Positions 4,394 to 60,500 of a stretch of DNA of 64,000 nt are shown one piece after another. Under the pieces are notes generated by a model. It was not told the origin of the DNA and ran no database searches. It saw only the letters and a program-made list of their open reading frames with translations. The number at the start of each line of letters is the position of its first letter. Position 1 is the first letter of the stretch. The DNA lies in NCBI GenBank assembly GCA_964505385.1, contig CAZDIA010000008.1, positions 18,658-82,657 on the forward strand. The letters run 5' to 3'. Both the position numbers and the translations under genes were made by a program. Origin of the DNA: an uncultured Chitinophagales bacterium. Lineage in GTDB: Bacteria; Bacteroidota; Rhodothermia; Balneolales; Natronogracilivirgulaceae.

Positions 4394-4401
4394 CATAACT
4401 C

Positions 4402-6961: not shown

Positions 6962-7169
6962 CCGGCCCGGCTTGTCAAAAATGTCAGTTATAAAGAAATG
7001 GTACAATTTGCTATCCATTTTGATGATGAATTATCAGAATATCAAAAGTTTCTATAAAAAACACTTCAGTCCGAGTTCGATTCCAATCAGTATAATTTTA
7101 GAACATCTGCACATATATCGAGGCTATACCGGCTTATTATGTTGATATGTCTTCGAATCTGATCATTTT

Positions 7170-17307: not shown

Positions 17308-17334
17308 GATAATCTCTTCTATTCGTGATTCATG

Positions 17335-19200: not shown

Positions 19201-19226
19201 ACATTTTACGCTATTTCAGGTTTAGA

Positions 19227-28410: not shown

Positions 28411-28479
28411 ACTATTTATCTTTACAATAATGGTGTTAGGTCAAAGAATAATTTTTCAATCTGGTAAAATCAGTTCGAT

Positions 28480-28515
28480 TTTGAATGGAATCTAATTTCT
28501 CCTTAATTATATTTG
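28480..28515 (+). promoter_or_regulatory. Putative promoter of the GHL10-GHL10-symporter operon
   Basis: TATATTTG at 28508-28515 lies 37 nt upstream of the ATG at 28552. TTTG at 28480-28483 is upstream of it, with a somewhat long spacer. Confidence 0.4.
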
Positions 28516-28551
28516 AAACTAAATCTAATATCTGTTGGATTAAGAAAATTT

Positions 28552-29754: not shown

Positions 29755-29786
29755 AAATTTGAATCTACAAAGACTTTATTAACCGT

Positions 29787-31775: not shown

Positions 31776-31815
31776 AAAATCGACAACTACTCATAATGTA
31801 AAGCATCTGTAGCCC

Positions 31816-33651
31816 TTGGTTTTAATTGATTACATCATCATTGCCGTTTATATGATCATTCTGGTCAGTGTCGGGATTTACGGCAAACGGCAAGCAGAGA
31901 AAGGCATCGACAGCTTTTTCCTCGGGAACCGGAAAATTTCCTGGTGGATGCTCGGCTCTTCCGGTATGGCCTCAAATCTGGATGTGGCCGGTACATTGAT
32001 TATTGTCGCTTTTATCTACGCTATCGGTATTCAGGGGATTTTTATTGAAATCCGCGGCGGTGTGGTGCTGATCATGGCTTTCCTGATGATCTTCATGGGA
32101 AAGTGGAACCGCAGGGCAGGAGTTATGACGATTGCCGAATGGATGAAACTCCGGTTTGGTGACGGTAAGCAGGGAAACGCAGCTCGAATCTTAAGTGCCA
32201 CAGCTAATTTAGTTTTTGCCATAGCTATTGTGTCCTATTTTGCACAGGGCGGCGGGATTTTTCTCGGCAGCATCCTCGGTATTTCCCCGGAACTTGCCGC
32301 CATCCTGATGATCGGACTCGCATCAATCTACACCATAACCAGTGGTCTTTTCGGAGTCGTCTATACCGACGTTTTCCAGGGATTTCTGATCTTTTTCACC
32401 ATCATTTATGTCTGCATTCTCGCTTTTGTTCAGTTTGATTTACCCGAAGAGTTTATGGTATCGGTTCCCGCCGACGGCGGATTTAAAATGGTTCCCACTA
32501 CGCTTTCTGATTGGAGCACTTTCTGGCCTACACTCACTATGGACCTTCCGGGGGATTATGCCCAGTACAATTTGTTCGGGCTGGCCGTACTTTTTTACCT
32601 CTTTAAAACTTCCATTGAGGGCAGCGGCGGAACCGGCGGTTATTTGATCCAGCGCTACTTTGCCGCTAAGAACGACCGCGAAGCCGGTCTGCTCAGCCTT
32701 TTCTGGATTTTTCTGCTTTCCTTCCGGTGGCCGTTTGTGGTAGCCATTGCCATTATAGGGATATCTATGGGCCTGGGTGGGGACGTCATCGAAAATCCGG
32801 AAGAAGTACTTCCGATTGTGATTATGAATGAGCTGCCAATTGGCATTACCGGTCTGCTCGTTGCCGGCCTCATAGCCGCAGCAATGTCCACCTTCGACTC
32901 TATCGTTAACGCCGGTGCGGCTTATTGGGTAAAAGATATTTACCAGCGATATCTCAACCCAGAAGCGAATGGCCGCCAATTGCTGTTACACAGCCGCGGC
33001 TCTTCACTGCTTATTATCATTATCGGGGTTCTGCTGACTTATACTTATGATGACCTTAACGAAGTGTGGGGTTGGATCACCATGAGTCTTGGTTCCGGAC
33101 TGATTGTCCCTCAGCTAATCCGCTGGTATTGGTGGCGCTTCAACGGCTACGGATTCGCTTTTGGCACCTTTGCCGGAATGGTTATGGCCGTACTTCAACG
33201 CATTATCATGCCCGAATCTCCGGAATATGTCAACTTTTTGCTTATCAGCAGCGTCACGTTCATCGTATGCATCATGACCACTTTTATGACCGAGCAAACT
33301 GGTTTCAGCGATCTTAAAAAGTTTTATGCCAACACACGGCCGTTCGGTTTCTGGGGACCGGTTCGCAGTATTTTCTCACCTGAGCAGATGGAAGAGATCA
33401 ACAAGGAAAACCGCCGTGATATCATCTCTATTTTTATCGCGGTACCCTGGCAGCTGACGTTATTCATCACACCGATGGTATTCATGACCAAACAGTGGGA
33501 TTACTTTTTCATCATGCTTGCAATACTGATCGGCCTGTCGGTAGCACTGTACTTTACATGGTTCCGGCACTTGTCCGATATCGACCGCGAAGAGCCGGTT
33601 CCGGCAAATGATCCGGATGTTGAAATAATCGGCGGACGTGAGAAATCTTGA
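31816..33651 (+). CDS. sodium:solute symporter (SSF) family transporter
   Basis: 611 aa, about 13-14 TM segments. The N-terminus LIDYIIIAVYMIILVSVGIYGKRQ and internal motifs are typical of SSS transporters. A TTG start is inferred. Confidence 0.88.
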   Translation: MVLIDYIIIAVYMIILVSVGIYGKRQAEKGIDSFFLGNRKISWWMLGSSGMASNLDVAGTLIIVAFIYAIGIQGIFIEIRGGVVLIMAFLMIFMGKWNRRAGVMTIAEWMKLRFGDGKQGNAARILSATANLVFAIAIVSYFAQGGGIFLGSILGISPELAAILMIGLASIYTITSGLFGVVYTDVFQGFLIFFTIIYVCILAFVQFDLPEEFMVSVPADGGFKMVPTTLSDWSTFWPTLTMDLPGDYAQYNLFGLAVLFYLFKTSIEGSGGTGGYLIQRYFAAKNDREAGLLSLFWIFLLSFRWPFVVAIAIIGISMGLGGDVIENPEEVLPIVIMNELPIGITGLLVAGLIAAAMSTFDSIVNAGAAYWVKDIYQRYLNPEANGRQLLLHSRGSSLLIIIIGVLLTYTYDDLNEVWGWITMSLGSGLIVPQLIRWYWWRFNGYGFAFGTFAGMVMAVLQRIIMPESPEYVNFLLISSVTFIVCIMTTFMTEQTGFSDLKKFYANTRPFGFWGPVRSIFSPEQMEEINKENRRDIISIFIAVPWQLTLFITPMVFMTKQWDYFFIMLAILIGLSVALYFTWFRHLSDIDREEPVPANDPDVEIIGGREKS

Positions 33652-33686
33652 TTAGCTTTTTTCTTAGCGCCTGATTTGCAGGGGTT

Positions 33687-33720
33687 CAGTGTGTCAGGGC
33701 TACAGTGTGTCAGTGTGTCA
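33687..33720 (+). repeat. Short tandem repeat, 3 x CAGTGTGTCA
   Basis: CAGTGTGTCA occurs at 33687-33696, 33703-33712 and 33711-33720, in the symporter 3-prime flank. Confidence 0.7.
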
Positions 33721-33876
33721 AATTCAGTTAACAGTAATCAGTGATCGTGATGCGACGTCGGCTTTGGAATAAATTCCATTATTGAAGTCGATGGCACGAC
33801 GGCTTTCAATCCTGTTTGAAGTTTGATGTTCTATGTCCAAATGTCTATCTCACTTTGTCACTCTGTTACGGCGCTT

Positions 33877-33906
33877 GTCCCGACAAAGTCGGGATTACTT
33901 TTTTAC
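33877..33906 (+). terminator. Rho-independent terminator (plus strand)
   Basis: TCCCGAC-AAA-GTCGGGA hairpin followed by TTACTTTTTTACTT. Confidence 0.6.
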
Positions 33907-33909
33907 TTC

Positions 33910-33950
33910 AAAAAAAAGCCCTGCCGAAGCTACTCAACTCCAGCAGGGCT
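33910..33950 (-). terminator. Rho-independent terminator of the 33973-35304 gene
   Basis: AGCCCTGC / GCAGGGCT stem. The minus strand reads the hairpin followed by TTTTTTTT. Confidence 0.7.
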
Positions 33951-33972
33951 TTAGTTTGGAAGAATAAAAATC

Positions 33973-35304
33973 TTACTTCACAAAACTCATAGTTCGCGAC
34001 ACATTAACTTCACCGGCTCGCAGACGATAAATATAGGTTCCGCTTGCAAGTCCTGATGCATCGAAGGTCACTGAATGACGGCCGGAGCTTTGTTCTTCAT
34101 CCACAAGCGTTTTAACATGCTGCCCGGCAGCATTATAAACTTCCAGAAGTACTTCTTGAGCTTGCGGAATTTCATATTCTATGCTGGTTGAGGGGTTAAA
34201 AGGATTAGGATAATTTTGGTCGAGTTCATATCCCTCAGGCAGTTCCGTAATGATGCTGCCTCCAACTGATGTTACAACTTCATCTACACTGTAACTTTTC
34301 AGCGGATTTCGGGCTGATAACACAATTAACCGCCTCCGTTCGGTATCCAGCGCTGTAAATCCGTTCAACTGTACATTTTCGCGGATATCTTCATCCTCTT
34401 CACTCTCAAAAGTGCTGGCTACATAGCGAATGTCCTCATAATCCGTTACATCAGCCACATGAAACTTTGCCGTAGGAAACTTCGGCCCTGCAGCCAGCAA
34501 AGTAGTTTCGTCGGACATGACACCGGTTGAAACATTCATTGTTTGAGCGGGGAGAATCTCGGCAACAGTACCCAATTCACCTGTTTCGAGACTCATTTTT
34601 CTAACATCGGCATCGGCACCATTTACCCAGACACTATCTTCTCCGACAATTTCCGCAATGCCTCCGCGTGCATGGTTTGCATCTTCAACATCAAATATTT
34701 CAGCTTCTCCAAACATGCCTTCATCGGCATCGAAATGGGCAACGGCAACATTTTCATTTCCGAAAGCCCCGGTCACAAAGCTGAGGTCATTCCCTGTGCC
34801 TGAAATTCCGAAGGAATCTCCATAACGGGCATCCAGATCTTCTTCAAAGACAACTTCAGGCTCACTTCCGGAATCTTCCCAACGGTAAACTTTGTAGGTG
34901 CCTCCACCGTCAATGAGGTTGATGGCAAAAATCTGGCCGTCACGGGTAACATCGACGTCAGCTAAATCAAAGTCACCTCCATCTACGATACCATCATCTT
35001 CGCCCCGGCTCAGATAGCCTTCCAGTTCTCCGTTTTCGGGATTTACCACAGCTATTTGCTGCTGACCATCTATTCGCGTATGTACATACAATTCATCCGC
35101 CTCAGGATTGTAAGCTCCACCGCGATGCCAATAGACAGCAGTGCCATCTTCATCATCATCCCAGAGCCATTCAACATCAGCAGGATCAACATTCCATTCC
35201 GGCGTTTCGAGAAAGACAAACTCATCAGCGGCTTTTACTGTCCCAGCCACTGCAAAACACAGAACCAAAAGTGTTATCATTACATTAGGTATCAATTTTT
35301 GCAT
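33973..35304 (-). CDS. acidic T9SS cargo protein with unnamed propeller-like domain (paralog family), encoded directly downstream of susD
   Basis: The start at 35304 gives the signal peptide MQKLIPNVMITLLVLCFAVAGTVKA (the track start 35400 would overlap susD). The domain shares motifs with 19227-23126 and 43740-45047 (VTRDGQIFAINL, YKVYRWEDSGSEP, RYGDSFGISG). The CTD reads NYPNPFNPSTSIEYEIPQAQEVLLEVYNAAGQHV...ASGTYIYRL. Confidence 0.85.
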   Translation of the reverse strand: MQKLIPNVMITLLVLCFAVAGTVKAADEFVFLETPEWNVDPADVEWLWDDDEDGTAVYWHRGGAYNPEADELYVHTRIDGQQQIAVVNPENGELEGYLSRGEDDGIVDGGDFDLADVDVTRDGQIFAINLIDGGGTYKVYRWEDSGSEPEVVFEEDLDARYGDSFGISGTGNDLSFVTGAFGNENVAVAHFDADEGMFGEAEIFDVEDANHARGGIAEIVGEDSVWVNGADADVRKMSLETGELGTVAEILPAQTMNVSTGVMSDETTLLAAGPKFPTAKFHVADVTDYEDIRYVASTFESEEDEDIRENVQLNGFTALDTERRRLIVLSARNPLKSYSVDEVVTSVGGSIITELPEGYELDQNYPNPFNPSTSIEYEIPQAQEVLLEVYNAAGQHVKTLVDEEQSSGRHSVTFDASGLASGTYIYRLRAGEVNVSRTMSFVK

Positions 35305-35386
35305 AGTATTTGCTTTTTGAGGGTGAATGTGAATTGTTTTCGATTTTTTCGCAATTAAAATACACTGGTTAACTGGGTTCTGATAG

Positions 35387-36889
35387 TTAATTTTTTGCAT
35401 CCCACCATACGTTGTCGAGCATGTTGTTGCCTTGTCGGTCGATCGCTTCCTGAAGATTATCGTTATTCAATCCCTCTTCGGAGTTCGGATAACGCAAACG
35501 TCTCGGCAGCTCACCATCTGTTTCACCGCCGGACGGATCACCAATTTCCTGCAGCTCCGGATACCCGGTTCGTCGAATTTCCGCGTAGGCTTCCATACCC
35601 TGACCAAAAATGGCCAACCATTTCTGAGTGATAATTTGCTCGAGCTGCCCTTCGTCATCCAGGGTGGGGTCGAAGGCGGCCGGCGAGTCATTTATATAGT
35701 CATCAATCTCTTGCTGTTCAATTTCGAATTGATCAATCGAATCATAAAATTCAAGAGATGCACGTATACCGTCTTCGTAGTGTTCAGCAGGGTCTCCAGG
35801 TCCCCATCCCCGAAGAGCTGCTTCAGCCTCCAGAAACTTTACCTCGGCAGTCATCATAATGCGGATGGGCGTTTCGATATCATGAAAATATGAGGTTTCC
35901 CTGGAATATAATCCCGGGGCGTTTTGGGTTTGAGAAAGCTGCGTGTCCGAAAGTCCGTTCTGTAATCCCTGGCGAATCTGTGTGATATCCGATGGCGCCA
36001 GGAACACTTCAAGCCGGGGATCTTCTAAATCCGATAAATTGTCGGAGAGAGTTTGGCTGATTCGGTATTCGTCAAACCGGTAAATCCAATGGTGGTGATT
36101 ATCGTGCACAAAATCTCCGGTTCCACCACCGGGGTCGACTTCAAGTTTTACATTGTGATTATTGTTTTCAAGTATCGGACGGCCGTTCAATACATCACCT
36201 ACGTGTTCTTGAGCAAGACCCGGATCTGCATAAGAGACTCGCATGGCAAGCCTAAGCCTCAGAGAATTTGCAAAACGGCGCCACATATCCACATTTCCGT
36301 TAAATAAAACATCAGCGGATCCCAGCCTGAACTCGGCACCGTCGTCAAGAGCTTCTTCTGCTTCTGTCAGCTCATTTAACATATCTCTGTAAATTTCTTC
36401 CTGCGCATCGTATGCCGGTTGGGTATTCCGTTGCATAGCATCAAAATAAGGAACATCACCCCAATAGTCGGTAACCCGGTGCATGATCCAGACTCTCAAG
36501 ATACGGGCTTTTGAGTGAATGTTGAGCATCTCCTCATCATCCGCAGTTAATTCCAGCGCTTCCTGAATGTTACTGCCGAAGTTGGAGTAGGCAGCATCCC
36601 AGTATGCGGTAAGCCAATCCTGCCGGGTTTCATAGCGGTCCGTACCCCAGCCGGATTCTATATTGGAATAATATTGCGCATAGTGATTGCCATATAAATG
36701 CTTGCCACGCTGGTACACATCAAAGCGAAGAGCACCATAAACCATACCGCGGGTAATGAGCGCTTCAGGCTGGACATCTGTCGGACTGGTAGGATCTGTA
36801 TTGACAGATTCAAAATTATCTGTACAGGCTACAACTCCCACCATTAAAAACAGCGTGAAACTAAGAATGAAAAATGTTTTAAACTTCAT
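35387..36889 (-). CDS. susD: SusD/RagB-family nutrient-binding outer-membrane lipoprotein
   Basis: MKFKTFFILSFTLFLMVGVVACTDNFESVNTDPTSP is a lipoprotein signal with a typical SusD N-terminus. The body is TPR-like helical. The gene follows susC directly. Confidence 0.9.
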   Translation of the reverse strand: MKFKTFFILSFTLFLMVGVVACTDNFESVNTDPTSPTDVQPEALITRGMVYGALRFDVYQRGKHLYGNHYAQYYSNIESGWGTDRYETRQDWLTAYWDAAYSNFGSNIQEALELTADDEEMLNIHSKARILRVWIMHRVTDYWGDVPYFDAMQRNTQPAYDAQEEIYRDMLNELTEAEEALDDGAEFRLGSADVLFNGNVDMWRRFANSLRLRLAMRVSYADPGLAQEHVGDVLNGRPILENNNHNVKLEVDPGGGTGDFVHDNHHHWIYRFDEYRISQTLSDNLSDLEDPRLEVFLAPSDITQIRQGLQNGLSDTQLSQTQNAPGLYSRETSYFHDIETPIRIMMTAEVKFLEAEAALRGWGPGDPAEHYEDGIRASLEFYDSIDQFEIEQQEIDDYINDSPAAFDPTLDDEGQLEQIITQKWLAIFGQGMEAYAEIRRTGYPELQEIGDPSGGETDGELPRRLRYPNSEEGLNNDNLQEAIDRQGNNMLDNVWWDAKN

Positions 36890-36907
36890 ATATGAGACCG
36901 TTAGCAA

Positions 36908-39900
36908 TTAAAAAACTATATTTACGCTGAAACCCAGACTGCGGTTCTCCGGCATGGAAAAAGATTCCAGCCCCTGTGCATTACCGATATTGAAACTTCC
37001 TTGTGCCGGACTAAAACCGGGTGTGTCTTTGTGAAAGTAAAACAGATTGCGTCCGATGAGGGACACTTGTAGGCTTTGAAAGGGAGTTACATCTACCCAA
37101 TTGACCGGGAGATCATAAGTAAATACAATTTCACGCATTCTCAGATAAGTCGCATCATATACAAACTCCTCGGTTATCGGGCTGCCACCGCCTACCCGGC
37201 CCCAATAATCCTGCGGGTTTACGGCTTTTTCGTTTTCCACATATTCGCCGTCATCAATTTCCACAACGCCTTCGGCAACATAGCCTTCACGATCTTCCTC
37301 ATCCAGATCGCGGGTATCATACCATTCCTGGCGCCCCTCAAGTGTAAATTCCGGAAAACCTCGCTGAGCGGCAAATGAATTGGTGAAAGAATAGACATCT
37401 CCGCCGACGGATATATCGACCAGTGTGCTTAATGAGAAATTCCGGTAGGTCACCTCATTGAAAAATCCTCCGGTAAAGTCCGGATTGAAATTCCCGAGTA
37501 CATGGGTTCCATCGTCTCGAACGGGAAGCCCTTCGTCATCTATGATTCGTTCTCCGTCATCATTGCGTTTATAGCGCTCACCGACGATATCACCAAACGG
37601 TTCTCCTACTGACGCCTGAACTGTAGCTCCCTGAATCTGCCCGAGGAAAAAGTTTTGGAGCTCTCCGGTTAGTTCAACTACTTCATTTCGATTGAAACCG
37701 ATATTGAACCTGCTGGTCCACTCCCATCCGGTTTCTGAATCAACCGGGATAAATGTGAGTGAGCCTTCAATACCTTCGTTTCGGATCATACCTGCATTAA
37801 TACGTGCGGCTGAAAAGCCAGAGGTTCTCGAAACCGGAATGGGCAAAATCTGATTCCGGGTATTTTCCCTATAAATTCCCATGTCAAGTTTGACACGTTC
37901 ATTAAAGAATCGCAAATCCAAGCCTGCTTCAACTGATCTTGTAATTTCCGGTTTCAGATCAACCGGAGGTAATTCGGTTGGAAGGTCTGCAAATTGTTGC
38001 CCTTTGTGGCCGGGATTTACGCTGTAGGTGAAATTTGTAACAAAGGGCGGCCCGCCGGAGCCAACCTCCGCCCAGGAAGCCCTGACCTGGCCAAAGGGAA
38101 ACACTTCGGAAATCAGATCGAAAGCTTCGGTAAATACGAATGATCCGCTAACCGAGGGGTAAATAAACGGCAGGTTTTCAACCGGCAACGTGGAATCCCA
38201 GTCAACCCGGCTTGTGAGATCGAGAAATGCATAGTCCCGAAATCCGAACTCAGTGGTTGCAAATACCGATTGAACTTCAGCACGGCTGAGTATACTTATA
38301 TTATTAGCGGATTCGGCATTGGAGATATCATAAAAATCCGGAATAAATATTCCCTCTCCGATGTAGCCGACTGTGCGGTCATTAAATCTGCGATAACTTC
38401 CGCCGATATTGGTTTCAAAATCTAAATCTTCACTCAAAGCCCGGCTATACTGCATCATTGCCCGCACATTGAATTCAACAAAGTTGCGGTCTCTTGTTGT
38501 AAAAGTGGCATCGGTACGATAAGGAGTATATTGCGCCCGCCTGTATTCCCGGATTTCATTAAAATAATCCAAGCCGGTAACAAGGTTAAAATTCAGGTTT
38601 TCGCTTGCATCATAGTTAATGCGGGCAAAACCGTAGAAACGGTCACGTTCATCCTCACTGATATTCAGGTTATGTGCCCAAAAAGGATTCATATTACGGG
38701 TATCCGAACCTTCCTGCGCTGCGGCATCCCATGTGCGGGCAAGGCCTTCACCTGTACGGAAATTCTCCAGGTCGGAAAGCCGCTCACTGGTTGGCATGCG
38801 AATCAGTGCCTGCATCGGGTTGTCGGGGTCTTCTGCAAGTGGGGGGCGATTATCAATCGACTGTGTGACGTAATTTATTCGGGCTTCAACATTAAGATCA
38901 TCAAAAAAGTCACGGCCGGCTCGGAGTGACACAAAATGTCGTTGCAGATCATTATCCGGATAATTGCCTTGGTTCATCGTATTGCTGTACGAAATCCGGT
39001 AGGTGTGATCATCTCCGCCTCCTGAAAGTGCCAGTATATTATTGGCGGTAAACGAGTTTTGAAAATATTCATCAAACCGGTCGGGTTGAGCCTCGTAAGG
39101 CCTGACTTCGCCGGTCCAGTCCAGAGCCATGGTTCCGTCCATAGCCGGTCCCCAGCTGTTAGTTTCCGAGTCCGGAATGATGTAGTGCTCATTTGCTTCA
39201 TCAAACTCAAGAGTACCGTTGGAACCACGCCCGAAATCAGTCTGCATCTCAGGCATTATATAGGGCTGCTCCACAGTAAAGTTAGAGGTGAATTCAACTC
39301 CGATTCCCGGCCGCTCTTGGCCCGATCGCGTCGTAATTTCCAAAACGCCATCGGCAGCACGGCTTCCGTAAAGCGCTGCGGCATTCGGCCCCTGAAGAAC
39401 ACTCATCGATTCAATTTCGGCCATGTTTACCTGATTAAGTCCGGAACCGAAATCTCGTCCGCCCTGAGCTGTTGCACTCATTCCGCCGCTGTTGTCAATC
39501 GGGACGCCGTCAACTACGATCAAAGGTTGACTTGTGCCGGTTAGTGAACGATGCCCCCTGATCACAATCCTCGTGCTGCCGTCGGGACCGGAACCGAGAC
39601 CGTCAATCTGAACATTGGAAACACGACCTTGAAGAGCAGAAACGGCATTCATGCCGCCACTGCGACTGATTTCCTCTCCGCCGAATTCCTGAACGGTGTA
39701 TCCGAGAGATTTTTCTTCCCGCGTCATACCAAAAGCAGTTACCACCAGATCTTCCCCCACGAGAGCTTCCGGTTGCAGAAAAACCTCAAGCTCGGTCTCT
39801 TCATCGACGGTAACTATCTTTTCGCTGAATCCAAGATATCTGAAAATCAGCTCATTATGCCCCTCAGGTACCGTAATTTCAAAATTACCATCAATATCAG

Positions 39901-40078
39901 TACTTGTCCCGAAATCGGTGCCCACAACCATTATATTAACACCGGCAAGCGGTTGGTCGCTTTCAGCATCGAAAACAGTTCCGCTGACATTAAAATCCTG
40001 TGCTGAAATGGTACTGAATACGCCGGCACAAAAAATTATTACTAAAGATAAAAAACGGAATAGTATCGATATTTTCAT
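36908..40078 (-). CDS. susC: SusC/RagA-family TonB-dependent outer-membrane transporter
   Basis: 1056 aa. N-terminal carboxypeptidase-regulatory-like domain (VSGTVFDAESDQPLAGVNIMVVGTDFGTSTDIDGNFEI), then a plug (VLQGPNAAALYGSRAADGVLEITT), then a barrel ending in LGFSVNIVF. Confidence 0.93.
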   Translation of the reverse strand: MKISILFRFLSLVIIFCAGVFSTISAQDFNVSGTVFDAESDQPLAGVNIMVVGTDFGTSTDIDGNFEITVPEGHNELIFRYLGFSEKIVTVDEETELEVFLQPEALVGEDLVVTAFGMTREEKSLGYTVQEFGGEEISRSGGMNAVSALQGRVSNVQIDGLGSGPDGSTRIVIRGHRSLTGTSQPLIVVDGVPIDNSGGMSATAQGGRDFGSGLNQVNMAEIESMSVLQGPNAAALYGSRAADGVLEITTRSGQERPGIGVEFTSNFTVEQPYIMPEMQTDFGRGSNGTLEFDEANEHYIIPDSETNSWGPAMDGTMALDWTGEVRPYEAQPDRFDEYFQNSFTANNILALSGGGDDHTYRISYSNTMNQGNYPDNDLQRHFVSLRAGRDFFDDLNVEARINYVTQSIDNRPPLAEDPDNPMQALIRMPTSERLSDLENFRTGEGLARTWDAAAQEGSDTRNMNPFWAHNLNISEDERDRFYGFARINYDASENLNFNLVTGLDYFNEIREYRRAQYTPYRTDATFTTRDRNFVEFNVRAMMQYSRALSEDLDFETNIGGSYRRFNDRTVGYIGEGIFIPDFYDISNAESANNISILSRAEVQSVFATTEFGFRDYAFLDLTSRVDWDSTLPVENLPFIYPSVSGSFVFTEAFDLISEVFPFGQVRASWAEVGSGGPPFVTNFTYSVNPGHKGQQFADLPTELPPVDLKPEITRSVEAGLDLRFFNERVKLDMGIYRENTRNQILPIPVSRTSGFSAARINAGMIRNEGIEGSLTFIPVDSETGWEWTSRFNIGFNRNEVVELTGELQNFFLGQIQGATVQASVGEPFGDIVGERYKRNDDGERIIDDEGLPVRDDGTHVLGNFNPDFTGGFFNEVTYRNFSLSTLVDISVGGDVYSFTNSFAAQRGFPEFTLEGRQEWYDTRDLDEEDREGYVAEGVVEIDDGEYVENEKAVNPQDYWGRVGGGSPITEEFVYDATYLRMREIVFTYDLPVNWVDVTPFQSLQVSLIGRNLFYFHKDTPGFSPAQGSFNIGNAQGLESFSMPENRSLGFSVNIVF

Positions 40079-43739: not shown

Positions 43740-45047
43740 CTATTTGATAAAACTCATCTGTCGCTGCATCACGTGATCACCGGCCTGCAACCGGTACAGA
43801 TAGATACCTGATGAAAGTCCGGAAGCGTCAAATTCGGAAATATGGGTCCCGGCCTGCATTTGTTCCTCATCCAACAGGGTTTTTACGTAGCGACCTTGCG
43901 CTGTAAACACGCTGAGGGTTACAGCAGCAGATTCCCTGAGTGTAAATTCTATCTGCGTGACAGGGTTAAACGGATTGGGATAGTTTTGCCGGAGTTCAAA
44001 GTCACTCGCAACTTCAGCATCTACCGGTGAGGAGGTCGTGGTTTGCTCAAGCGGGAAAGAGGCAATTGCATTGTTTGTCGAGAGCATCACCAGTGTATTA
44101 CGATTATGATCAAATTCGACTGCACCGGTTGCATTGGGGTTTTGATACACACTCAACTGAGATGATGACGAGATGAGCTGCGGATTTTGTAAATCGGTGA
44201 TATCCACCAGATCGATAACCTGGTCCGCATCCCCTGTACCCCGGGGTGCTGTCGCAATGACCTGAAGGGTGTCGAAATCGGCGAAATCGATATTCATACT
44301 TCCGGTAGAGACAACCTCACCCGGAATAGAACTTCCGGTTTCACCGGTTTCCGTACTGATTTTCGTCGGCTCCGTACCCGATCCGTTGACCCATAAGCTG
44401 TCCTCACCGGCAATAGGTGAAATACCTCCGCGTGCAATACCGGCCGGAGCATTCAGAAAATCAGGTTCCGAGAGGCTATGATCATCAGCGTCATACTCCA
44501 GTTTCAGGATATCTTCATTACCGGTACCGGCAAAGTACAGCCAGATGCCATCTCCGGTTTCATCAATACCCAGGGCATCGCCATAGCGGGCTGCATTGAC
44601 ATCTCCCTGGAAAAGGATTTCCATTTCGCTTGCTTCATCTTCCCACATATAGATAATGAAATCTTCTTCGGAGGAGTCAACCACACTATTGGCTGCGAAA
44701 ATGGTACCATCTTCAGTAGCACCAACTTGATTGAGTGCCAGAAACCCGGTTTCAATAACCTCCTCTGTATCCAGGGTTCCTTCCACATTTCCGGTGGATG
44801 AATCCAAGACATAAACAGCCGGCTCCTCGGTATTGCTTGCCACCAAAATATTTCCGGTAGCCGGGTTTAAACTCATACCTCGCGTGGCGTTATCGTCGTT
44901 GTCCAACCAATCCTCATCGATGGGTAGAACTTCCCATTCTGCTGAACCAATCTCCAATTGATAGCTTTCCTGAAGGTTTTGGGTGTTGGCGGTGTAAAAT
45001 CCAATGCAAATTATGAGGCCTAACAGTATCGTCTGTTTCATGAGCAT
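43740..45047 (-). CDS. acidic T9SS cargo protein with unnamed propeller-like domain (paralog family)
   Basis: Signal peptide MLMKQTILLGLIICIGFYTANTQ. Motifs GATEDGTIFAANS, FIIYMWEDEASEME and RYGDALGIDETG are shared with 33973-35304 and 19227-23126. The CTD reads NYPNPFNPVTQIEFTLRESAAVTLSVFTAQGRYV...SSGIYLYRL. Confidence 0.85.
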   Translation of the reverse strand: MLMKQTILLGLIICIGFYTANTQNLQESYQLEIGSAEWEVLPIDEDWLDNDDNATRGMSLNPATGNILVASNTEEPAVYVLDSSTGNVEGTLDTEEVIETGFLALNQVGATEDGTIFAANSVVDSSEEDFIIYMWEDEASEMEILFQGDVNAARYGDALGIDETGDGIWLYFAGTGNEDILKLEYDADDHSLSEPDFLNAPAGIARGGISPIAGEDSLWVNGSGTEPTKISTETGETGSSIPGEVVSTGSMNIDFADFDTLQVIATAPRGTGDADQVIDLVDITDLQNPQLISSSSQLSVYQNPNATGAVEFDHNRNTLVMLSTNNAIASFPLEQTTTSSPVDAEVASDFELRQNYPNPFNPVTQIEFTLRESAAVTLSVFTAQGRYVKTLLDEEQMQAGTHISEFDASGLSSGIYLYRLQAGDHVMQRQMSFIK

Positions 45048-48037: not shown

Positions 48038-48383
48038 CAAACGCAGGCTGTTCGGCATAGCCGCGCTGTCGGCATGGTGGCAACGGAGAAATATATGGGT
48101 AACCGCGGAGGGCGCGAAGTTGTCACTGAGGATGCTGGGAGATATAGGGTGATGGAGTTTAGGAATGATGGAGTAGTGGATTGGATTCCCTGATTTTCCT
48201 TAATTCCTTACCACCTTAATTAGTGCTTGTAAAAAAACTCAAAGTGCCCTAACAAAACGCCAGGATCAAATGTACAGGGTTTACTTGAGCATTTTGGGGA
48301 CGAGCGGAAAGAAGATATTGGCGTTTTCTTAGAGGCACTAATTAAAATCAGACAGAACTAACTTTCCTGGTGAATAATTAAGG

Positions 48384-51697: not shown

Positions 51698-54210
51698 TGG
51701 CGCGCAGAAAAAAAAGACGTTCCGAGCAAAAACCTGCATTGCCCAACGACTTCTGGGCTAATCTTCCAAAATCGAGACAGCATATCGTCTGTCTGCTTTT
51801 CCTGTTTATTCTGCCGGTATTAATGTTCCATGAGACAATTATCGGCGGCTATCAATATTTTGCTCACGATACTTTGCAGTGGCGGGCAGGAGCTGAATCA
51901 GCAATAGAATACCGTGAGTCAGAAAATGAAGAGCCTCTGTGGGTTCCTAATATGTTCGCCGGAATGCCGGCTTACGTAGTCACCTATGCCAAAGCCGTTC
52001 CTCATTTGGATCAGTTAGTATTTAATGCGCTCCGGCCTATTTTTCCCGCCGCCCCCTTCTGGATATTGCTCGGAGGGAGTTACCTGTTTCTTTGGCTGAT
52101 GGGATTCCGGCCCCTTGTGGCCGCTTTGGGGAGCGTGCTTGTCGGTTTCACTACCTATATCCCCATAATCATCGGAGCGGGACATAACACCAAGTTCCTG
52201 ACATACAGCTTTATTCCATGGATGCTTGCCGGTTACTGGATGATATCGCGCACCAACAGGATATGGCTGGCTTTTTTCCTGTTGACGATCGCTACAAATC
52301 TCGTGCTCAGATCAAATCATCCACAGGTACTCTATTTTTTCTTTTTTGTATTACTGATCTGGTGGATTTACGATCTGTCACAAGCCTGGCGAAATGGCGA
52401 ACTGCCTCCATTCGTCAAAAAATCCGTGTTGATCGGCTCTGCCGGATTACTTGCCCTTGTTGCAAATGCTGATGAATACTGGACTACGTTTGAATATACC
52501 CCCTATAGTACCCGTGGTGGCTCGGAAATAACTGAAGAAGCCGACGCGGGCTCCGGCCTTGATCCGGATTACGCTTTTGCCTGGTCTCAGGGACCGGGTG
52601 AGTTGCTCACTTTAATTATTCCGGAATCTTACGGTGGTGCTTCAGGAGAGGGCACTTATTGGGGGCCAAAGTCTTTTACCAGCGGACCACATTATTTCGG
52701 GGCTATCACCCTGCTTTTAATAGTGATTGCCCTGTTTAATGTTCGGGCCAGGCTGATGTATGTTTTCGGTGCCTCTGCACTGTTAACCATTCTGTTTTCG
52801 CTTGGAAAACACCTGGAGTGGTTTAACATGATTTTCTTCAACTACTTTCCTCTGTTCGATCGCTTTCGTGTGCCGGAGATGTGGCTAATGGTTTCAGTAT
52901 TTTGTGCCGCAATTGTAGCGCTTTACGGGTTGAATTGGCTCTATGAGCAATATGAAAACAACAAGCTTGATCTCAGTTCATTCTATGCCCCCGGCGGTAT
53001 TGTTCTGGCCATTGCTCTGATTTTCGCTGTTGGCTCAGGTCAGATTCTGAGTTTTGAAAAAGAAGGTGAGCGTGAACAAATCGCTATGCAAATTGCTCAA
53101 CAGCAACAAATGGATCCCCAGGACCCACAGGTGATGGAGCATGCTGAACGGGTTATTGCTGAACAATTTATACCGGCACGTGAAGAAAAAGCAGCTTCAG
53201 ACAGCCGCCGATTCCTGATTTTTGTACTGATCGGAGGCGGGCTTATTGCAGCCACACTTGCCGGAAAGCTGGCCGTAAGCTATGCCGCGGCCGGTATCCT
53301 GCTGCTTACCGCTGTTGATTTAATTCAGGTCGGAGAGCGCTACGCTGAAAAAGACGATCTGATTTCCGCTGATATTGAGCATACTCAAATTATCGAAGAT
53401 CGCATGACCTCTGCTGATGAGTTTATACGTGATAATGTATCATCTGATGAAGCATGGAGTTACAGGGGTTATCCACTTGCAAGCAATCCGTTTAACAATG
53501 CTGTACCCGCGTCATATCTCTATGAATCATTGGGTGGCTATTCCGGTGCCAAACTTCAGAATTTTCAGGATCTGGTGGATCATGCAATTAATCAAGATCC
53601 GCAACGGGCACCCGTACCCATTTTAAGCATGATGAATGTGCGCTATGTTACAGCGCAACAACAGTTGCAGGATCCCGCATTCGAACTGGTTCATCAACAA
53701 CAGGATGGCATTGTATTCGAAAATACCGAGGTTCTTCCGCGTACCTTTTTCGTAGATGAGATAGAATATGCCGGCTCGCCACGTGAGGCTATGAACGCCA
53801 TAAACCGGGACGGTTTCGATCCCTCTGAGCTCGCAATTCTTCAAACCGATAATGAGATAACTATCGATCCCGAGGCTCAGCCTGCTTCAGAAGTTACACG
53901 ATTGGATAACCGCAATATCGAAGTGGATATTGAATCCGACGGTGACGCTTTTATGGTACTCAGCGAAGTTTATTACCCTGCCGGATGGAATGCCGAGCTC
54001 GACGGGGAACCCATAGATATCGAGCGAACCAACTTCCTGCTGCGTGGCTTTCAAATACCCGAAGGGTCCCATACTCTTACTCTGAGGCTGGAACCCGCGT
54101 CACACATTTGGGGAGGTCGGCTCTCCTGGATCTTCAACATATTTATATTGTTGATTGGCGGTGTAGCCGCCTACCAGGAGTGGAACAGACGTAAGCAGCA
54201 GGAAAATTAA
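51697..54210 (+). CDS. YfhO-family polytopic membrane protein (putative glycosyltransferase)
   Basis: 837 aa. Many TM helices in the N-terminal 550 aa, a large C-terminal extracytoplasmic domain and a terminal TM segment. The start overlaps the gatC stop (TAATG). Confidence 0.8.
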   Translation: MARRKKRRSEQKPALPNDFWANLPKSRQHIVCLLFLFILPVLMFHETIIGGYQYFAHDTLQWRAGAESAIEYRESENEEPLWVPNMFAGMPAYVVTYAKAVPHLDQLVFNALRPIFPAAPFWILLGGSYLFLWLMGFRPLVAALGSVLVGFTTYIPIIIGAGHNTKFLTYSFIPWMLAGYWMISRTNRIWLAFFLLTIATNLVLRSNHPQVLYFFFFVLLIWWIYDLSQAWRNGELPPFVKKSVLIGSAGLLALVANADEYWTTFEYTPYSTRGGSEITEEADAGSGLDPDYAFAWSQGPGELLTLIIPESYGGASGEGTYWGPKSFTSGPHYFGAITLLLIVIALFNVRARLMYVFGASALLTILFSLGKHLEWFNMIFFNYFPLFDRFRVPEMWLMVSVFCAAIVALYGLNWLYEQYENNKLDLSSFYAPGGIVLAIALIFAVGSGQILSFEKEGEREQIAMQIAQQQQMDPQDPQVMEHAERVIAEQFIPAREEKAASDSRRFLIFVLIGGGLIAATLAGKLAVSYAAAGILLLTAVDLIQVGERYAEKDDLISADIEHTQIIEDRMTSADEFIRDNVSSDEAWSYRGYPLASNPFNNAVPASYLYESLGGYSGAKLQNFQDLVDHAINQDPQRAPVPILSMMNVRYVTAQQQLQDPAFELVHQQQDGIVFENTEVLPRTFFVDEIEYAGSPREAMNAINRDGFDPSELAILQTDNEITIDPEAQPASEVTRLDNRNIEVDIESDGDAFMVLSEVYYPAGWNAELDGEPIDIERTNFLLRGFQIPEGSHTLTLRLEPASHIWGGRLSWIFNIFILLIGGVAAYQEWNRRKQQEN

Positions 54211-54231
54211 AATCCAAATCATAGATTGATT

Positions 54232-54402
54232 GGGATGGTATGCGATAGCATTTTGCATCCCATACCGTTTGTCAGGAATTTTTCGCACCTGCAGGAAGTT
54301 TCACCACCACGGTGACACCACGGACACAAAGAAAGAATCATTTTTAATAAAACGTAGTGCTATTTGCGCCTTCTTTGTACCCTTTGCGGTTAGAAAAATT
54401 CG
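54232..54402 (-). repeat. Intergenic repeat family, copy B (inverted orientation)
   Basis: The reverse complement aligns with copies A and C, sharing AGCACTACGTTTTATTAAAAATGATT exactly with A and GGTGGTGAAACTTCCTGCAGGT with C. It lacks 9 nt that A and C have. It lies between convergent yfhO and leuS. Confidence 0.8.
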
Positions 54403-54424
54403 ATTCGAACTCAGGTTATCAATT

Positions 54425-57028
54425 TCACTTGACTACAAGATTTACAATCTTTCCGGGAACAAATATTTCTTTAACCAGTTGCCCCTCATCGATATATTTA
54501 CTTACTGATTGCTGCTTTTTAGCCTCACTCAATACATATTCTTTGTCTTCAGCATTTTCAGCAGGAACTTCAATCTGCCCACGAACCTTGCCGTTTACTT
54601 GTACCGCATAGACTTTTGTATCGGTCTGAAGCCATTTTTCGTCATATTCCGGCCAGCTTTCATAAGCCAGAGTACTGCTCTCACCAAGTTTTTGCCAAAG
54701 CTCTTCTGAAATGTGAGGAGCATAAGGTGACAGTAACAATACAAATGTTTTTAATACGGATACAGGCCGATCTTCCCATTTCAAAGCTTCATTATTAAAA
54801 ACCATAAGCGCAGAAATGGCCGTATTAAAACGCAATCCCTCAATATCTTCAGTAACTTTTTTTATTGTTTGATGCAGCAGGCGCATCTGATCCTTCGAAG
54901 GTTCGACATCCTTAACCTCGGAATTCAAATCCCCGCTTTGTTCATCAATAAACATGTTCCAAACCCTGCGCAGAAACCGGTATACGCCTTCTACACCCTG
55001 CATACTCCAGGGTTTTACCTGCTCCAGGGGTCCCATAAACATCTCATAAAGGCGCAGCGAGTCGGCTCCGTATTTTTGGATGATGTCATCAGGGTTAATA
55101 ACATTACCACGGGATTTCGACATTTTGTGAGATCTGGCTTCCACCGTAACCTCGGTGCCTTTGATCACAAAATCGTTGCCCTTTTTCTCGACCTGCTCTT
55201 CAGTCAGGCTTTCCTTTTCAAATTCGTCCGAATCCGACACTTGTTCAACCGGTACATACTGACCATTCTTTTTAAAAGCGTTGAACTCCATTTCCCCCAG
55301 GATCATCCCCTGATTGACCAATCGTTGAAAAGGCTCATTGGTGCTCACAACACCGATATCATAAAGTACCTTATGCCAGAACCTTGCATATAACAAATGC
55401 AACACCGCATGTTCCGCGCCTCCGACATATAAATCCACCGGCATCCATGTTTTCTCCAACTCCGGATCTACCGGTGCTTTATCATACTGAGGGCTGATAT
55501 ACCGGAGATAGTACCAGCATGACCCGGCCCACTGAGGCATGGTATTGGTTTCGCGTTTAGCAGGTTTGCCTGTTTCAGGATCGGTTGTGTTTACCCACTC
55601 CTCAATATTAGCAAGGGGAGATTCACCGGTTCCGCTTGGTTTGTAAGTGTCCACCTCCGGAAGGAGCACCGGTAACTCTTCTTCAGGCACAGGCTTGGGC
55701 TCTCCATCCACATGAATTATCGGTATGGGTTCACCCCAGTAACGCTGACGTGAAAAAAGCCAGTCGCGAAGTTTATAGGTAATACTGTATTTTCCGAATC
55801 CCTTTTCCTGCAACCAATCGGTTATGCGTTTTTTTGCTTCATCGACCGGCAACCCATTGATAGAAACCTCATCATTGGCAGAGTTGACCACTTCACCTTC
55901 TTCGGTGTCGGTATATGCTCCTTTTTCAATATCTCCGCCCTTGACCACCTCTACGATGGGCAGATTAAAATCCATGGCAAACTCCCAGTCACGTTCATCA
56001 TGCCCCGGCACAGCCATAATAGCGCCGGTACCGTAACCTGTAAGCACATAATCGGCAATCCAAACCGGGATTTGCTTCTTGGTACCCGGGTTATACGCAT
56101 ATCCTCCGGTGAACACTCCCGTCTTACTTTTGCTCAACTCGGTACGATCCAGTTCTGACTTTCGGGCAGCCTGTTCTTTGTAATCTTCTACTTTTTGCCT
56201 GTTTTCATCTGTGGTGATTTTATCCACCAACTCATGTTCCGGAGCAAGTACCATGTAGGTTGCACCAAACAGAGTATCCGGCCGGGTTGTAAATACGTCA
56301 ATATACTCGTCATACCCTTCTACAGGAAAGCTGATCTCAGCGCCTTCCGACTTCCCAATCCAGTTTCGCTGCATATCTTTGATTGACTCCGGCCAATCCA
56401 GATCATCGAGATCCTTTAAAAGTCGTTCAGCATATTCTGTAATTTTTAACATCCACTGCCGCATAGGCTTGCGGATTACCGGATAACCACCGACTTCACT
56501 CTTACCGTCAATAACTTCTTCATTGGCGAGAACGGTACCCAAATCGGGGCACCAATTCACCGGCACATCTGCCTGGTAAGCCAATCCCTGCTTGAATAAC
56601 TGCAAAAAGATCCACTGCGTCCATTTATAATATTCCGGGTCGGTAGTATCCACTTCACGATCCCAGTCGTAGCTGAAGCCGATAGCCTGCAGCTGTCGGC
56701 GAAAATGATCAATATTAGCTTTTGTAGTAGTTCGGGGGTGGGTTCCGGTTTTTACCGCATATTGTTCGGCGGGCAGACCGAACGCGTCCCACCCGATAGG
56801 ATGCAAGACGTTATATCCATTCATCCGCTTGTAGCGTGCAATGATATCGGTAGCGGTGTATCCCTCCGGGTGGCCGACATGCAAACCGCTACTGCTTGGA
56901 TATGGAAACATATCCAGCACATAATATTTTGGCCGGTTAGTGTCTGCCGCATCCGTGTTAAATACTTTATTTTCTATCCAGTGTTTTTGCCACTTTTTTT
57001 CGATTTCAGCCGGTTTATATTCGCTCAT
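54425..57028 (-). CDS. leuS: leucine--tRNA ligase
   Basis: 867 aa. HVGHPEGY (HIGH) and KMSKSRGN (KMSKS) motifs; full-length LeuS-like sequence. Confidence 0.97.
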
Positions 57029-57280
57029 TCCAGTTTTTCGGAACCTTTTTTATAGTTGATTAAATATTGTCATTAAGTCTGCAAAGATAAGGTAAATACA
57101 GCATAGCTGCATTTGCAGATTGATAATTTATATCAGTAGAATAGTGCAGGCAAATTCTGAAATCCAGGCGTTCTTACTGATAACCTTAGTTCGATTTTAA
57201 TCACCAGATTTTTGTAATTATCTGCGCATAAGTATATACTATGATTGCTTATGCCAATATGTCTGCTTTTTTTTTATTTT

Positions 57281-57500
57281 GTTGAAACTTTTTTAAACCA
57301 TAACGGACACAAAGAAGGCACAACGAGCACTATGTTTTATTAAAAATGATTCTTTCTTTTTGTCCGTGGCGTCTCCGTTGTGCTCGTGGTGGTGAAATTT
57401 CCTGCAGGTACGAAAAATTCCCGGCCTACGGTAGGCTACAAGTGCAATAAGTAAAATCTTGACAATTACTTAAATCCAGAATAATTAAAAAATCAATCGA
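57281..57500 (+). repeat. Intergenic repeat family, copy C (canonical orientation)
   Basis: Aligns with 7170-7391 over about 220 nt and with the reverse complement of 54232-54402. It ends about 14 nt from the sprA stop codon. Confidence 0.8.
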
Positions 57501-57513
57501 ACTCAGGTTGATA

Positions 57514-60500
57514 TTAATTTGATCTGATATTGACTACTACGTTAAACCGGAAATCCTGATCCGTTCTGGGGAATACATTACTTGATTCAGGCAACAGCCG
57601 GTTATAGGTATACTCAAAGTTTACAGTAATGGTCTGGGAAAACTGATATCCTATGGAAGGCTGAATATTGATTCGCGTGTCTCCCTGCCGCTCTGGATCA
57701 GGCGGTGTGTGAGCACCGGGGTCTCTGTCAATTTCATCAAGTGGTTCTCCCAGTACGCCCTCAAGATCCTGATTCAGACGGTAGGTAAAGGTCATGTCTT
57801 CGAAATAGCTAAAACTTAATCCGAGATCAATCTGATTTTCGAAACGGCGCAAGAACGGCAGGGTAAACCCGCTTTGACTGAAATTCGCCGAAAGCCTGAT
57901 ACCACGTGATACCTGCTCCCTCACATTGTTGTTTGAGAAGCTAAGGCTAACAGATTCACTGTGCTCATAATCAATGTTGGTTCGTAATCCGCTGGTCCAG
58001 TTAAGGCTAAGACCCACTAACGGAGAGAATCTTCGTTCCAGATTAAGAGAACTGGGATCATAATCCGACCGGAAGGTGTTAACGCTTATATTGCCAATGT
58101 TTCTTGATACTTCTTCTCCGGCATCCTGATGTAATCTCCAACCCATTTGCAGCCGTCCGTTATAGGAATGATTTATGGATGCTGAAGATAAATAATCCTG
58201 AATAAACGGAATATGATTTTCAAGTCCGGACCAGTTAAGATTCCAGTTCGGCATAGGAAAAGCGATATAATCCAAACGCCCGAGTCTGGCTCCGCTGAAC
58301 ATCATGTAGGCATCCCGGAAATCATCATTTAGCCCTCCCGATCGCAATATCGCTTCACCGGGTTCAGGCTGATTGATCTCCCCGTTTTCCAAATCACGAA
58401 AGGCGCGGGAGAGCTGACTTCTGAATAATTCTTCATATCCTGGCCCAAATGCCCATATACTTGAGGATACATTACCGGATTCATCAAATTCAGTAGAAAT
58501 ATCATCAACCGTTACCGTATGATTTTCGGTGATTGTTTCATCCCAGGTAGTACCCCAATCAAGGTCCACGCGAATGTTTTCGAAAGGTTGGATTCCGGAA
58601 CGGACAGAGAGGTCGTCCGTAGTGGTGCGCCGTTCTTCAAAATCAATAATTTGATCCGGATCATCCGGGCGGGCCATCTGTGTGATAGGTATCTCATGCG
58701 TAAATCCCATGCGATAGGCTAAAGGTGGAGAGAATTCGGCATCGGTTTCATCATTAAACATATGATAAATCCTGGTACCTCCGGTGTAGCCGGGCCTTAC
58801 CGAGTTAACCGAAGTGCTGTAACTCACATTGATGTCTCTCAAACTAAACAGACTTAATAAAACCCGACGGCCGATTTGCAGTATAGTTTCGCCCGGTTCT
58901 CTTTCAGGCATTTCAGCTTCCAGCGCTTCAAGCTCTTCCTCGTCATCGGTTTCCTCCATCTCCTCTCTGATGCGATCACGCTCATCCCTTCGCTGTTGAC
59001 GATCGGCCTGAGCTGCATCACTGGCATCCTGCAAGCTTTCATAATACGGAATACGCTCAAACAGATTCTGAGTCCGAATTACCGGATCATGATCAAGAGT
59101 AATGCTGTTACTTATATCAGCGCCGAGTCCGGAGCCTTCCGGCCGGTTCTCCCAGCTGAATGATCCGCGGTAGGACGCATCATATTGAAACCAATCCATG
59201 TAGCGGATGTTATCGATATTCGGGCTCCAATTAGCGCTGTAACTCTCATCATAATCGGAACGCCTCGGAGAAATATCATCATCAAAAAGAATATCCTCGA
59301 AAACTTCAAAGGATGAACGTGTTCGAAAAATATCAATATCTTCAAAGTCCTCAACGGCAATGCTTGCCAGGTCGAGTGATGAACTACTACTGAATTGTGT
59401 GGTAAGGGTTCTTGTAAGGCTGTAATTAAATCCAAAATCGGTAGATAATCGAAATGAGTGTGATTGCTCTACATCGAAGGGGTCTTCGCCTTCAAAATGT
59501 CGTTGCTGTCGTTCGGAATAATCTCTTCTGAGGCTGGCGCCGGCATTAAACGAGCTGGGAAGATATGCAAAACCCACATCCGAAAACATGCCAAAAATCG
59601 GCCATCCTTCAAACATTGAAAACGGGTGGAGCCGGTTGATTTCCGGTATACTTAAATCATAATCTCCGGAAAACTGGTAATTCCAGCTGTCATTAAAGAG
59701 ATGGCGGTCGCTTCGGGCTTCATCGATATTATACCGGTACGACAGGCGAATATTGTCCAGTGTATATTGCAATACAGGTGACTGAGAATTACTCTTAGAG
59801 ATACCCGATAAGCCAATTGAATAGCTGTTTTCAACCGTTCTTATCTGATCAAGCATAGAGTCAATTTCTTCATCCTGCTCATCTTCGGGTAAATCACTCG
59901 CCCTGACGGCATCTTCAAAATCTGAAAACCGGATATCACCTTCCTGCGGCAAATACCGTGGTGTGACGGTTCGCCGTGTTCCGGACAGTGATAGAGGAAT
60001 GTTCCAGCCATAACGTTCCGGCAGGAAGCGATGTAAATTCATATCAGAGGAGAGTCGGTACGAAGTCATATCGCTGGTGCGTCTATCACCCAAGCCGGAG
60101 TCAAGTGCACCAAAACCGTCGGTTTCTTGATTATACCGGGCATTAACCGTGGCAAAGTCCGCCATATCGATCCTTGCGCTTACATTTGCAGCCCATCCAT
60201 CATCATCATCAAAGCCGGATACCCGTAATTCGTTAACCCATAATTCGGCATCAAGAGAAGGAACGCCTCTGCCGGTTTCTTCACCATGCGGATTGCGCAC
60301 TCCTATAGCAACTTCATTTACTCCAACCAGTGAAGGATTCCCTTTTATGGCAATCTCTGCACCGGGTGCAGCATCTTCAAGCAGATCATCCCTCAAATAG
60401 AGTTCACTCTCATCGAAATCATCCAAATCACGGGCTTGCTTTAAGGCATTCAGTGATGAAAGTACAATGTTGACATTATTGGAATCGGGCATCCAAACGC

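Follow-up and report, generated by a model that had tools for sequence, protein, structure and literature searches.

The intergenic segment at 57281–57500 raises the question of whether a repeat that abuts the stop codons of several genes works there as an RNA or has come to lie there as mobile DNA. A first-pass annotation of the window, by which we mean the whole 64-kb stretch of DNA analysed here, had described this segment as a three-copy intergenic repeat of 150–225 nt, found again on the same strand at 7170–7391 and inverted at 54232–54402, and had held that a 3'-UTR RNA element fits it at least as well as a MITE. The window DNA occurs in soda-lake metagenome runs, and the best matches of its LeuRS in GTDB genomes, at 73–74% identity, come from MAGs of Balneolales and from one that is labelled Chitinophagales.

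Copies of the repeat

An nhmmer search of the 64-kb window with a profile built from the three copies matched only three places (E=2e-80, 1e-70 and 4e-68), namely 7160–7410 (+), 57270–57520 (+) and 54200–54422 (-), which we call copies A, C and B, respectively. By blastn within the window, copy C aligns with 7191–7391 over 201 nt at 82.6% identity (E=2e-45) and with 54378–54263 on the other strand over 125 nt at 82.4% identity (E=1e-23). Both searches score far above chance, and the three-copy repeat is thereby borne out, while the proposed unit size proved too small, as the homology of A and C continues about 110 nt further left, to 7060 and 57178, giving a unit of about 330 nt.

Six distinct copies were examined in total, the three of the window and three on other contigs (L082, L083 and L084). 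L082 and L083 are the two true copies from a second search with a 22-nt pattern; a further match to this pattern, L081, lies inside a coding region and was discarded as a chance match. L084 was located by comparing the translated open frame of the repeat with a protein collection, where a single ORF led to a single new locus. No further copies were found in extensions of the contig beyond the window (10 kb leftwards and 4 kb rightwards), an exact 26-nt repeat pattern gave 0 matches in genome-contig and metagenome-contig collections, the repeat profile found no copy at 80 leuS loci of GTDB genomes including Balneolales, and a distant-mode search of plasmid and phage collections returned no match. 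Judged by these sequence searches, the repeat family is lineage-restricted.

Architecture of the element

Copy C represents the complete element of 328 nt (57182–57509, +), and the full-length profile matches it at 57178–57514 with E=5e-107. The 15-nt motif AACCTNAGTTCGATT is found at both of its ends in the form of terminal inverted repeats (TIRs), whereby TIR-L (AACCTTAGTTCGATT, 57182–57196, +) matches the reverse complement of 57495–57509 in 14 of 15 positions and TIR-R (57495–57509) reads AACCTGAGTTCGATT on the - strand. The triplet GAT directly adjoins the element on either side, at 57179–57181 and, 1 nt from the sprA stop, at 57510–57512 on the + strand, and is read from the sequence as a putative target-site duplication. 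From left to right, the parts are TIR-L, a left module, GGTGAAACTT, the core, a second GGTGAAACTT, a second hairpin region, an AT-rich tail and TIR-R. The left module (57197–57280, +) is weakly conserved and common to A and L084, as seen in a MAFFT alignment of A, C and L084. The palindromic, high-copy core (57296–57406, +) was delimited by contig depth, folds and motif positions, and is followed by the second hairpin region (57401–57435, +), which runs from CCTGCAGG to CCTACGGTAGG, has an intermediate copy number and corresponds to an RNAalifold helix in columns 114–143. The tail (57436–57494, +) is also present in A, L082, L083 and L084, not in B.

In the core of copy C, the AT-rich centre GTTTTATTAAAAATGA, which is found in all three window copies, separates a pair of inverted arms of about 40 nt, so that the first-pass annotation was right in seeing an imperfect palindrome around an AT-rich centre in a multi-copy intergenic repeat. 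The direct repeat G(G/T)TGAAA(C/T)TT, said to bracket the core in A and C, was recovered in A as GGTGAAACTT at 7170 and 7286, and in C as GTTGAAACTT at 57281–57290 and GGTGAAATTT at 57391–57400. The inverted pairs themselves were described in part correctly: ACAAAGAA of the first pair is present in all three copies, its exact complement TTCTTTGT in B only, being interrupted in A and C; ACGAGCAC of the second pair occurs in A and C and its partner GTGCTCGT in C only; and CACGAGCAC, as it had been written, stands on the + strand of no copy.

Copy A (7068–7391, +; full-length profile match 7060–7399, E=2e-106) begins with a degenerate TIR-L, AGTCCGAGTTCGATT, at 7068–7082 and keeps the left module, the two direct repeats, the core, the second hairpin region and the tail; it has no TIR-R, and its tail passes directly into the truA stop codon. 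Copy B (54232–54417, -) is a short inverted form in which the TIR (54403–54417) is fused straight to the core, with neither left module nor tail and with a 9-nt deletion in the right arm. Copies A and L084 align with C along the full length of about 330 nt; L084 has kept both TIRs, and A, B, L082 and L083 have kept one end each. L082 is devoid of the left module and the left half of L083 consists of unrelated sequence. At 60–160 of L083 and at loose contig ends located before 57322 and before 57345, copies are spliced to other hairpin-rich sequence, for example CCTCCCGACTGCGTCGGGATTCAGTCGGGGTG, which hints at a second repeat family interrupting or recombining with the present one in these genomes.

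The end motif in its short form GAGTTCGAWT is not enriched as an independent genome-wide signal (12 matches versus 11 expected), and the longer context TGATAACCT is found solely at the instances on element ends. Weaker lone matches to the end motif are seen at 28471–28480 and 4120–4129, in two other intergenic spacers, as CAGTTCGATT and GAGTTCAATT; the match at 28471 runs on into TTTTGAAT, which resembles the left end of copy C. Such solitary matches may be remnants of old copies, and the full-length profile detected no element at either of the two sites. A faint likeness of the end motif GAGTTCGATT to the tRNA T-arm GGTTCGAATCC extends over 8–9 nt only and was judged non-significant.

Gene context

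Copy A occupies the spacer from the truA stop (7392–7394, -) to 7018, where a gene for a beta-helix/PKD protein (-) starts, copy C the spacer from the sprA stop (57514–57516, -) to the leuS start (57028, -), and copy B the spacer where the stops of a YfhO-like gene (+), named from a weak Pfam hit below cut-off, and leuS (-) face each other. The claim that every copy lies close to a stop codon holds: A ends at 7391, directly adjoining the truA stop, C ends at 57509, a few bases from the sprA stop, and B begins about 22 nt past the stop of the YfhO-like gene (54208–54210). The accompanying claim of one common sense relative to the neighbouring gene stands for A and C, which share the + orientation, whereas the - orientation of B carries no information because its neighbouring genes are convergent.

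Copies A, B and C account for about 88%, 87% and 70% of their own spacers, respectively, and without them the spacers would measure about 46, 28 and 150 nt, the last value being close to the 153 nt of the empty spacer in the relative L087. Stop-codon nearness is therefore largely expected, since the elements fill 70–88% of very short spacers, and in so compact a genome an insertion has to land a few bases from a stop if it is to leave the coding sequence and the following promoter intact. A Bacteroidota-type -7 box (TAnnTTTG), TATCTTTG, lies upstream of leuS at 57082–57089 (-), at a distance of 93 nt from the element. The window and the relatives L087, L089 and L091 all retain the box as TTATCTTTG, in the relatives about 60–75 nt upstream of leuS; the remaining spacer differs.

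Occupied and empty sites

The gene order sprA then leuS is the same in the window and in three relatives. The spacer between the two genes measures 485 nt in the window, where it contains the element, versus 153 nt in L087/L088 (LeuRS 93% identical), 105 nt in L091 (83%) and 184 nt in L089/L090 (82%), all of which are without the element; a profile search of these three spacers likewise found nothing. L087, L089 and L091 miss exactly the stretch 57182–57509, and among the contigs mapped on 53900–57800 from runs that contain a diverged relative, one contig of about 88% DNA identity joins 57163 to 57516 with 23 nt between. The L087 sequence AATTGATTTCGGGAAAAGTCGCCGGGTATTTCAG aligns with the window sequence AATTAAT-ATC-AGTAAGAACGCCTGGATTTCAG if the element and a single ATC are left out. 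Read in gene sense, L087 has AAT TGA TTTCGGGAAAAGTCGCCGGGT ATTTCAG and the window AAT TAA T-ATC-(element)-ATC-AGTAAGAACGCCTGG ATTTCAG, ATC corresponding to GAT on the + strand, and the empty site of L087 carries a single triplet, TTC in gene sense, at the position of the duplication.

As two further outgroups are empty, insertion in the lineage of the window is parsimonious, and given such an insertion, the GAT/GAT flanking copy C would be a 3-bp target-site duplication, putative and read from one copy. L084, where both TIRs are present, has flanks unlike each other (CAC and ACA). GAT also directly precedes the TIR in B and L082, so that it could be a preferred target or a part of the end.

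The loci of the relatives give a single profile match, an ortholog of copy B on the downstream side of leuS in L087/L088 (L087 12607–12701), which has the same unusual layout, about 91% identity to copy B of the window (counted by eye) and the B-specific substitutions GGCGCAAA in common with it. Since the 93% relative has B but lacks C, the family was active before and after the split of these lineages. The site of copy A corresponds to 479 nt in the relative, with no alignment at 80%.

Copy number in metagenomes

In four metagenome runs, the contig depth over the core (57296–57406), counted at >=80% likeness, amounts to 25x, 37x, 48x and 41x that of the single-copy flanks. The second hairpin region reaches about 3.5–19x, varying by bin and run, the tail about 3x and the left module 1x, and the core is accordingly the abundant part of the element. 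Many contigs terminate within it, and others join 57404 to 57296 with 8–14 nt between, revealing head-to-tail dimers. To the left of the core the copies diverge, some continuing into the left module and others into unrelated DNA. Either the core has a separate route by which it moves alone, or short forms make up most of the copies.

Nature of the element

With its 328 nt the element stays below about 400 bp and contains no transposase gene, TIRs delimit it in C (14/15) and in L084, three copies lie within 64 kb, with a core of 25–48x depth, and the orthologous sprA-leuS site is occupied in one lineage and empty in others. The family is also interspersed, L082, L083 and L084 sitting in other contexts, and the TIR-core fusion of B, the loss of the left module in L082 and of TIR-R in A, the replaced left half of L083 and the head-to-tail joints are variants of the decay type. 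As the first-pass annotation had stated, no transposase is nearby: Pfam detects none among the 37 window proteins, none was found in the window plus 14 kb of extensions, and about 78 kb of sequence contain no autonomous insertion sequence with matching ends. On these grounds we consider the repeat, with good though not full confidence, to be a new, lineage-specific mosaic MITE family, non-coding and non-autonomous, of an uncultured soda-lake Balneolales bacterium. A transposase encoded elsewhere in the genome would recognise the ends and insert the element, and the insertion would duplicate 3 bp of the target, as GAT in copy C. Inserted copies would then decay, shed their ends, recombine to mosaics and occasionally dimerise head-to-tail, surviving mainly within the tens of bases between a stop and the next promoter or between convergent genes. 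Insertions elsewhere in the compact genome would be harmful, such that each surviving copy abuts a stop codon.

Function as an RNA at gene 3' ends, be it as a stabiliser, a terminator or a 3'-UTR sRNA, or as a secondary role of a MITE, appears improbable to us, although part of the observations agree with it. In five copies the tail or TIR end lies about 1–50 nt from the stop of the gene reading into the element, either strand of the core can fold into a long hairpin, and the three copies located between same-direction genes (A, C and L084) share one orientation, with the tail towards the upstream gene, which a purely neutral MITE does not predict. Such a 3/3 agreement would, however, arise by chance in 1 of 4 cases, the share that the elements have of their spacers would by itself place them near stops, and in three relatives sprA and leuS manage without the element. 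The folds themselves argue against an RNA as well. Single-sequence folds scarcely beat shuffled sequences (z -0.8 to -2.2), and the better fold belongs to the strand that runs antisense to the upstream genes. In an RNAalifold analysis of five distinct copies, which has low power, the covariation term is unfavourable on both strands (+3.4 and +3.6 kcal/mol), and double changes that keep the pairing affect 2 of 44 predicted pairs on the + and 1 of 41 on the - strand. The pseudoknot-like interleaving of the two inverted pairs, which had been proposed for copy C, is correct as far as the complementarity is concerned (92% of cells paired), while the topology is not upheld, the interleaved helices showing 0 compensatory double changes. 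Each arm carries a block of about 12 nt, GTGCCCGTTGTG, twice at a distance of 20 nt, the left arm reading GTGCCCGTT GTGCCTTCTTT GTGCCCGTT GTGGTT as its reverse complement and the right arm GTGTCCGTG GTGTCTCCGTT GTGCTCGTG GTGGTG, and because each arm holds the same block twice, pairing can occur in two registers and takes on the look of a pseudoknot. Rfam 15 gives no match at gathering score over the whole window other than a tRNA-Asn, and at E<=10 yields nothing above chance level for 57000–57600. A scan of copy C and its flanks (56900–57700) for intrinsic terminators detects no hairpin with T-run inside the element, the single site found (57114–57094) lying outside. Ranking an RNA element at least level with a MITE thus fails in the light of the TIRs, the 3-bp direct repeat, the site found empty in three relatives and the lack of covariation and of Rfam matches; TIRs together with a putative target-site duplication, named beforehand as evidence against the RNA reading, are seen at copy C (14/15; GAT/GAT). 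A related and similarly unlikely scenario would have insertion aimed at the first bases past stops (GAT by TAA/TGA), the element thereafter serving as a gene-end module in one orientation, for example as an insulator, a stabiliser or a protein-binding array, in which a nucleoid or transposase-like protein could bind the sub-repeats spaced 9–11 nt apart (GTGNNCGTN), the block GTGCCCGTTGTG coming back at 20-nt intervals.

More weight is due to the idea that the mobile unit is the palindromic core of about 110 nt alone, a REPIN/BIME-like sequence moved as a single-stranded DNA hairpin by a tyrosine transposase of the RAYT or IS200/IS605 type, with the 328-nt TIR-bounded form being a composite or an older carrier invaded by the core; even so, we hold it to be the less probable account. 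It would explain the excess depth of the core over the left module and tail, which speaks against a plain MITE, and it agrees with the widely varying sequence to the left of the core, with the BIME-like variety of module combinations, with the single GGTGAAACTT that head-to-tail units have in common and with arm sub-repeats at helical-turn spacing, which resemble a protein-binding array. Against it, the 328-nt unit with its TIRs and putative 3-bp duplication is present or absent as a whole at the sole site where gain or loss is observable, whereas REPINs duplicate nothing, and a RAYT or IS200-type gene is absent from the window and from the about 78 kb examined. A small self-palindromic REP unit was not found in the core either; its arms of about 40 nt, with moderate G+C and an AT-rich centre, are not of the short G+C-rich REP type, and the depth gap may instead reflect faster decay of the AT-rich outer modules in combination with the 80% threshold. 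That the repeat encodes a small protein in the gene-sense frame ..CRKFHHHEHNGD..SFLIKRSA.. has, by comparison, next to no likelihood. The frame is open in 6/6 distinct copies (A, B, C, L082, L083 and, as P0001, L084), the 9-nt deletion in B preserves it, and P0001, of 45 aa, exists in the protein collection and has one public annotation. Yet the variant positions across the many copies are distributed 14/9/11 by position modulo 3, with no third-position excess, and we rejected the coding hypothesis for this lack of 3-base periodicity. Moreover, the start codon is not conserved, a match exists in only 1 of 5.8 billion clustered proteins, and the frame is open because the strand is C/A-rich and poor in stop triplets.

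Comparison with known repeat families

Among the bacterial MITEs are the Correia elements of Neisseria, MITEAba12 and Nezha. MITEs are defined as small elements whose non-coding core lies between TIRs, which are flanked by a duplication and fold into a long stem-loop (Delihas 2011, PMC3184786). The soda-lake element conforms to this description in size, TIRs, non-coding core and stem-loop fold, and one copy shows a putative duplication. With at most about 400 bp, TIRs and a non-coding core, a putative direct duplication at one copy, interspersed intergenic copies, a stem-loop and presence or absence among relatives, it is like the bacterial MITEs, although it shows no sequence similarity to any element of the collections searched. 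It also departs from typical MITEs in that its inner part is itself a long palindrome far outnumbering the ends, and in that the 3-bp duplication is seen at one copy.

The ERIC/IRU and YPAL-type repeats of enterobacteria are imperfect palindromes of 127–170 bp. Our element resembles them as an imperfect palindrome of about 100–130 nt that lies in transcribed spacers just downstream of genes and has partial and enlarged forms; it differs by having no sequence relation to them, by its occurrence in another phylum and by one clean empty site; ERIC mobility is not known to be tied to TIRs plus a duplication. REP units, in turn, are 20–40 nt long and G+C-rich, and REPINs come without target duplication (PMC3337134; PMC3184786). 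A mosaic of a palindromic unit and other motifs, a position at 3' gene sides and in convergent spacers and tens of copies per genome are shared with REP, BIME and REPIN sequences, whereas arms of about 40 nt with a 20-nt internal periodicity and the TIRs and putative duplication of the complete unit set the element apart. In form and position the element comes closest to ERIC-type palindromes and BIME/REPIN mosaics, without belonging to either group, and it does not found a new class.

Other features of the window

The direct repeats D1, D5 and D6 (17319–17580, 19211–19472, 34176–34218 and 43783–43988) are located at the 3' ends of - strand genes, code there for the C-terminal sorting domains of type IX secretion (Por_Secre_tail) and are thus paralogous coding sequence, not intergenic; this domain is found in seven window proteins. 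The region 23603–40078 looks like a polysaccharide-utilisation locus comprising a TonB-dependent receptor with CarboxypepD_reg (36908–40078), a SusD-like protein (35387–36907), a GH38 alpha-mannosidase, a DUF4434 protein, a GlcNAc 2-epimerase, a sodium:solute symporter and two paralogous GHL10 proteins (28513–29754 and 29787–31775; repeats D2, D3 and D7), and probably targets mannose-rich or N-glycan-like substrates. The tRNA-Asn (GTT) at 4322–4394 (+) is the sole Rfam/ARAGORN match in the window.

An unrelated inverted repeat of 28 nt (48216–48243 and 48318–48345), 82% complementary and with its arms 74 nt apart, occupies the spacer between an AAA_14/DUF4143 gene and an aminotransferase IV gene. 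It may represent a further small element or a terminator region, and a publicly annotated ORF of 52–63 aa (L098, L099) lies nearby. In a strain variant of the same organism (L094 3536–3721, corresponding to about 1400–2100 of the window), the DUF5128 gene and the GntR gene are separated by an extra gene for a 61-aa PspC-domain protein, and the DUF5128 product is shorter (379 versus 401 aa). About 5 kb past the left end of the window, a nucleotidyltransferase/HepT-like pair, a toxin-antitoxin module of the MNT-HEPN type, is encoded at 15714–16327 of L092.

Significance

For the study of soda-lake Balneolales the repeat has practical consequences, as it breaks short-read contigs of their genomes, many Logan contigs ending within it, and is behind at least one spurious "protein" of 45 aa in the public databases. 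Should the reading as a gene-end module be true, it would provide a Balneolales counterpart of BIMEs on a different scaffold. The finding of a MITE family attests to transposition in the recent past of an uncultured lineage, one copy being common to two lineages about 12% apart in the DNA of the leuS region and another not, and the defined end sequence AACCTGAGTTCGATT offers a handle for finding the responsible transposase.
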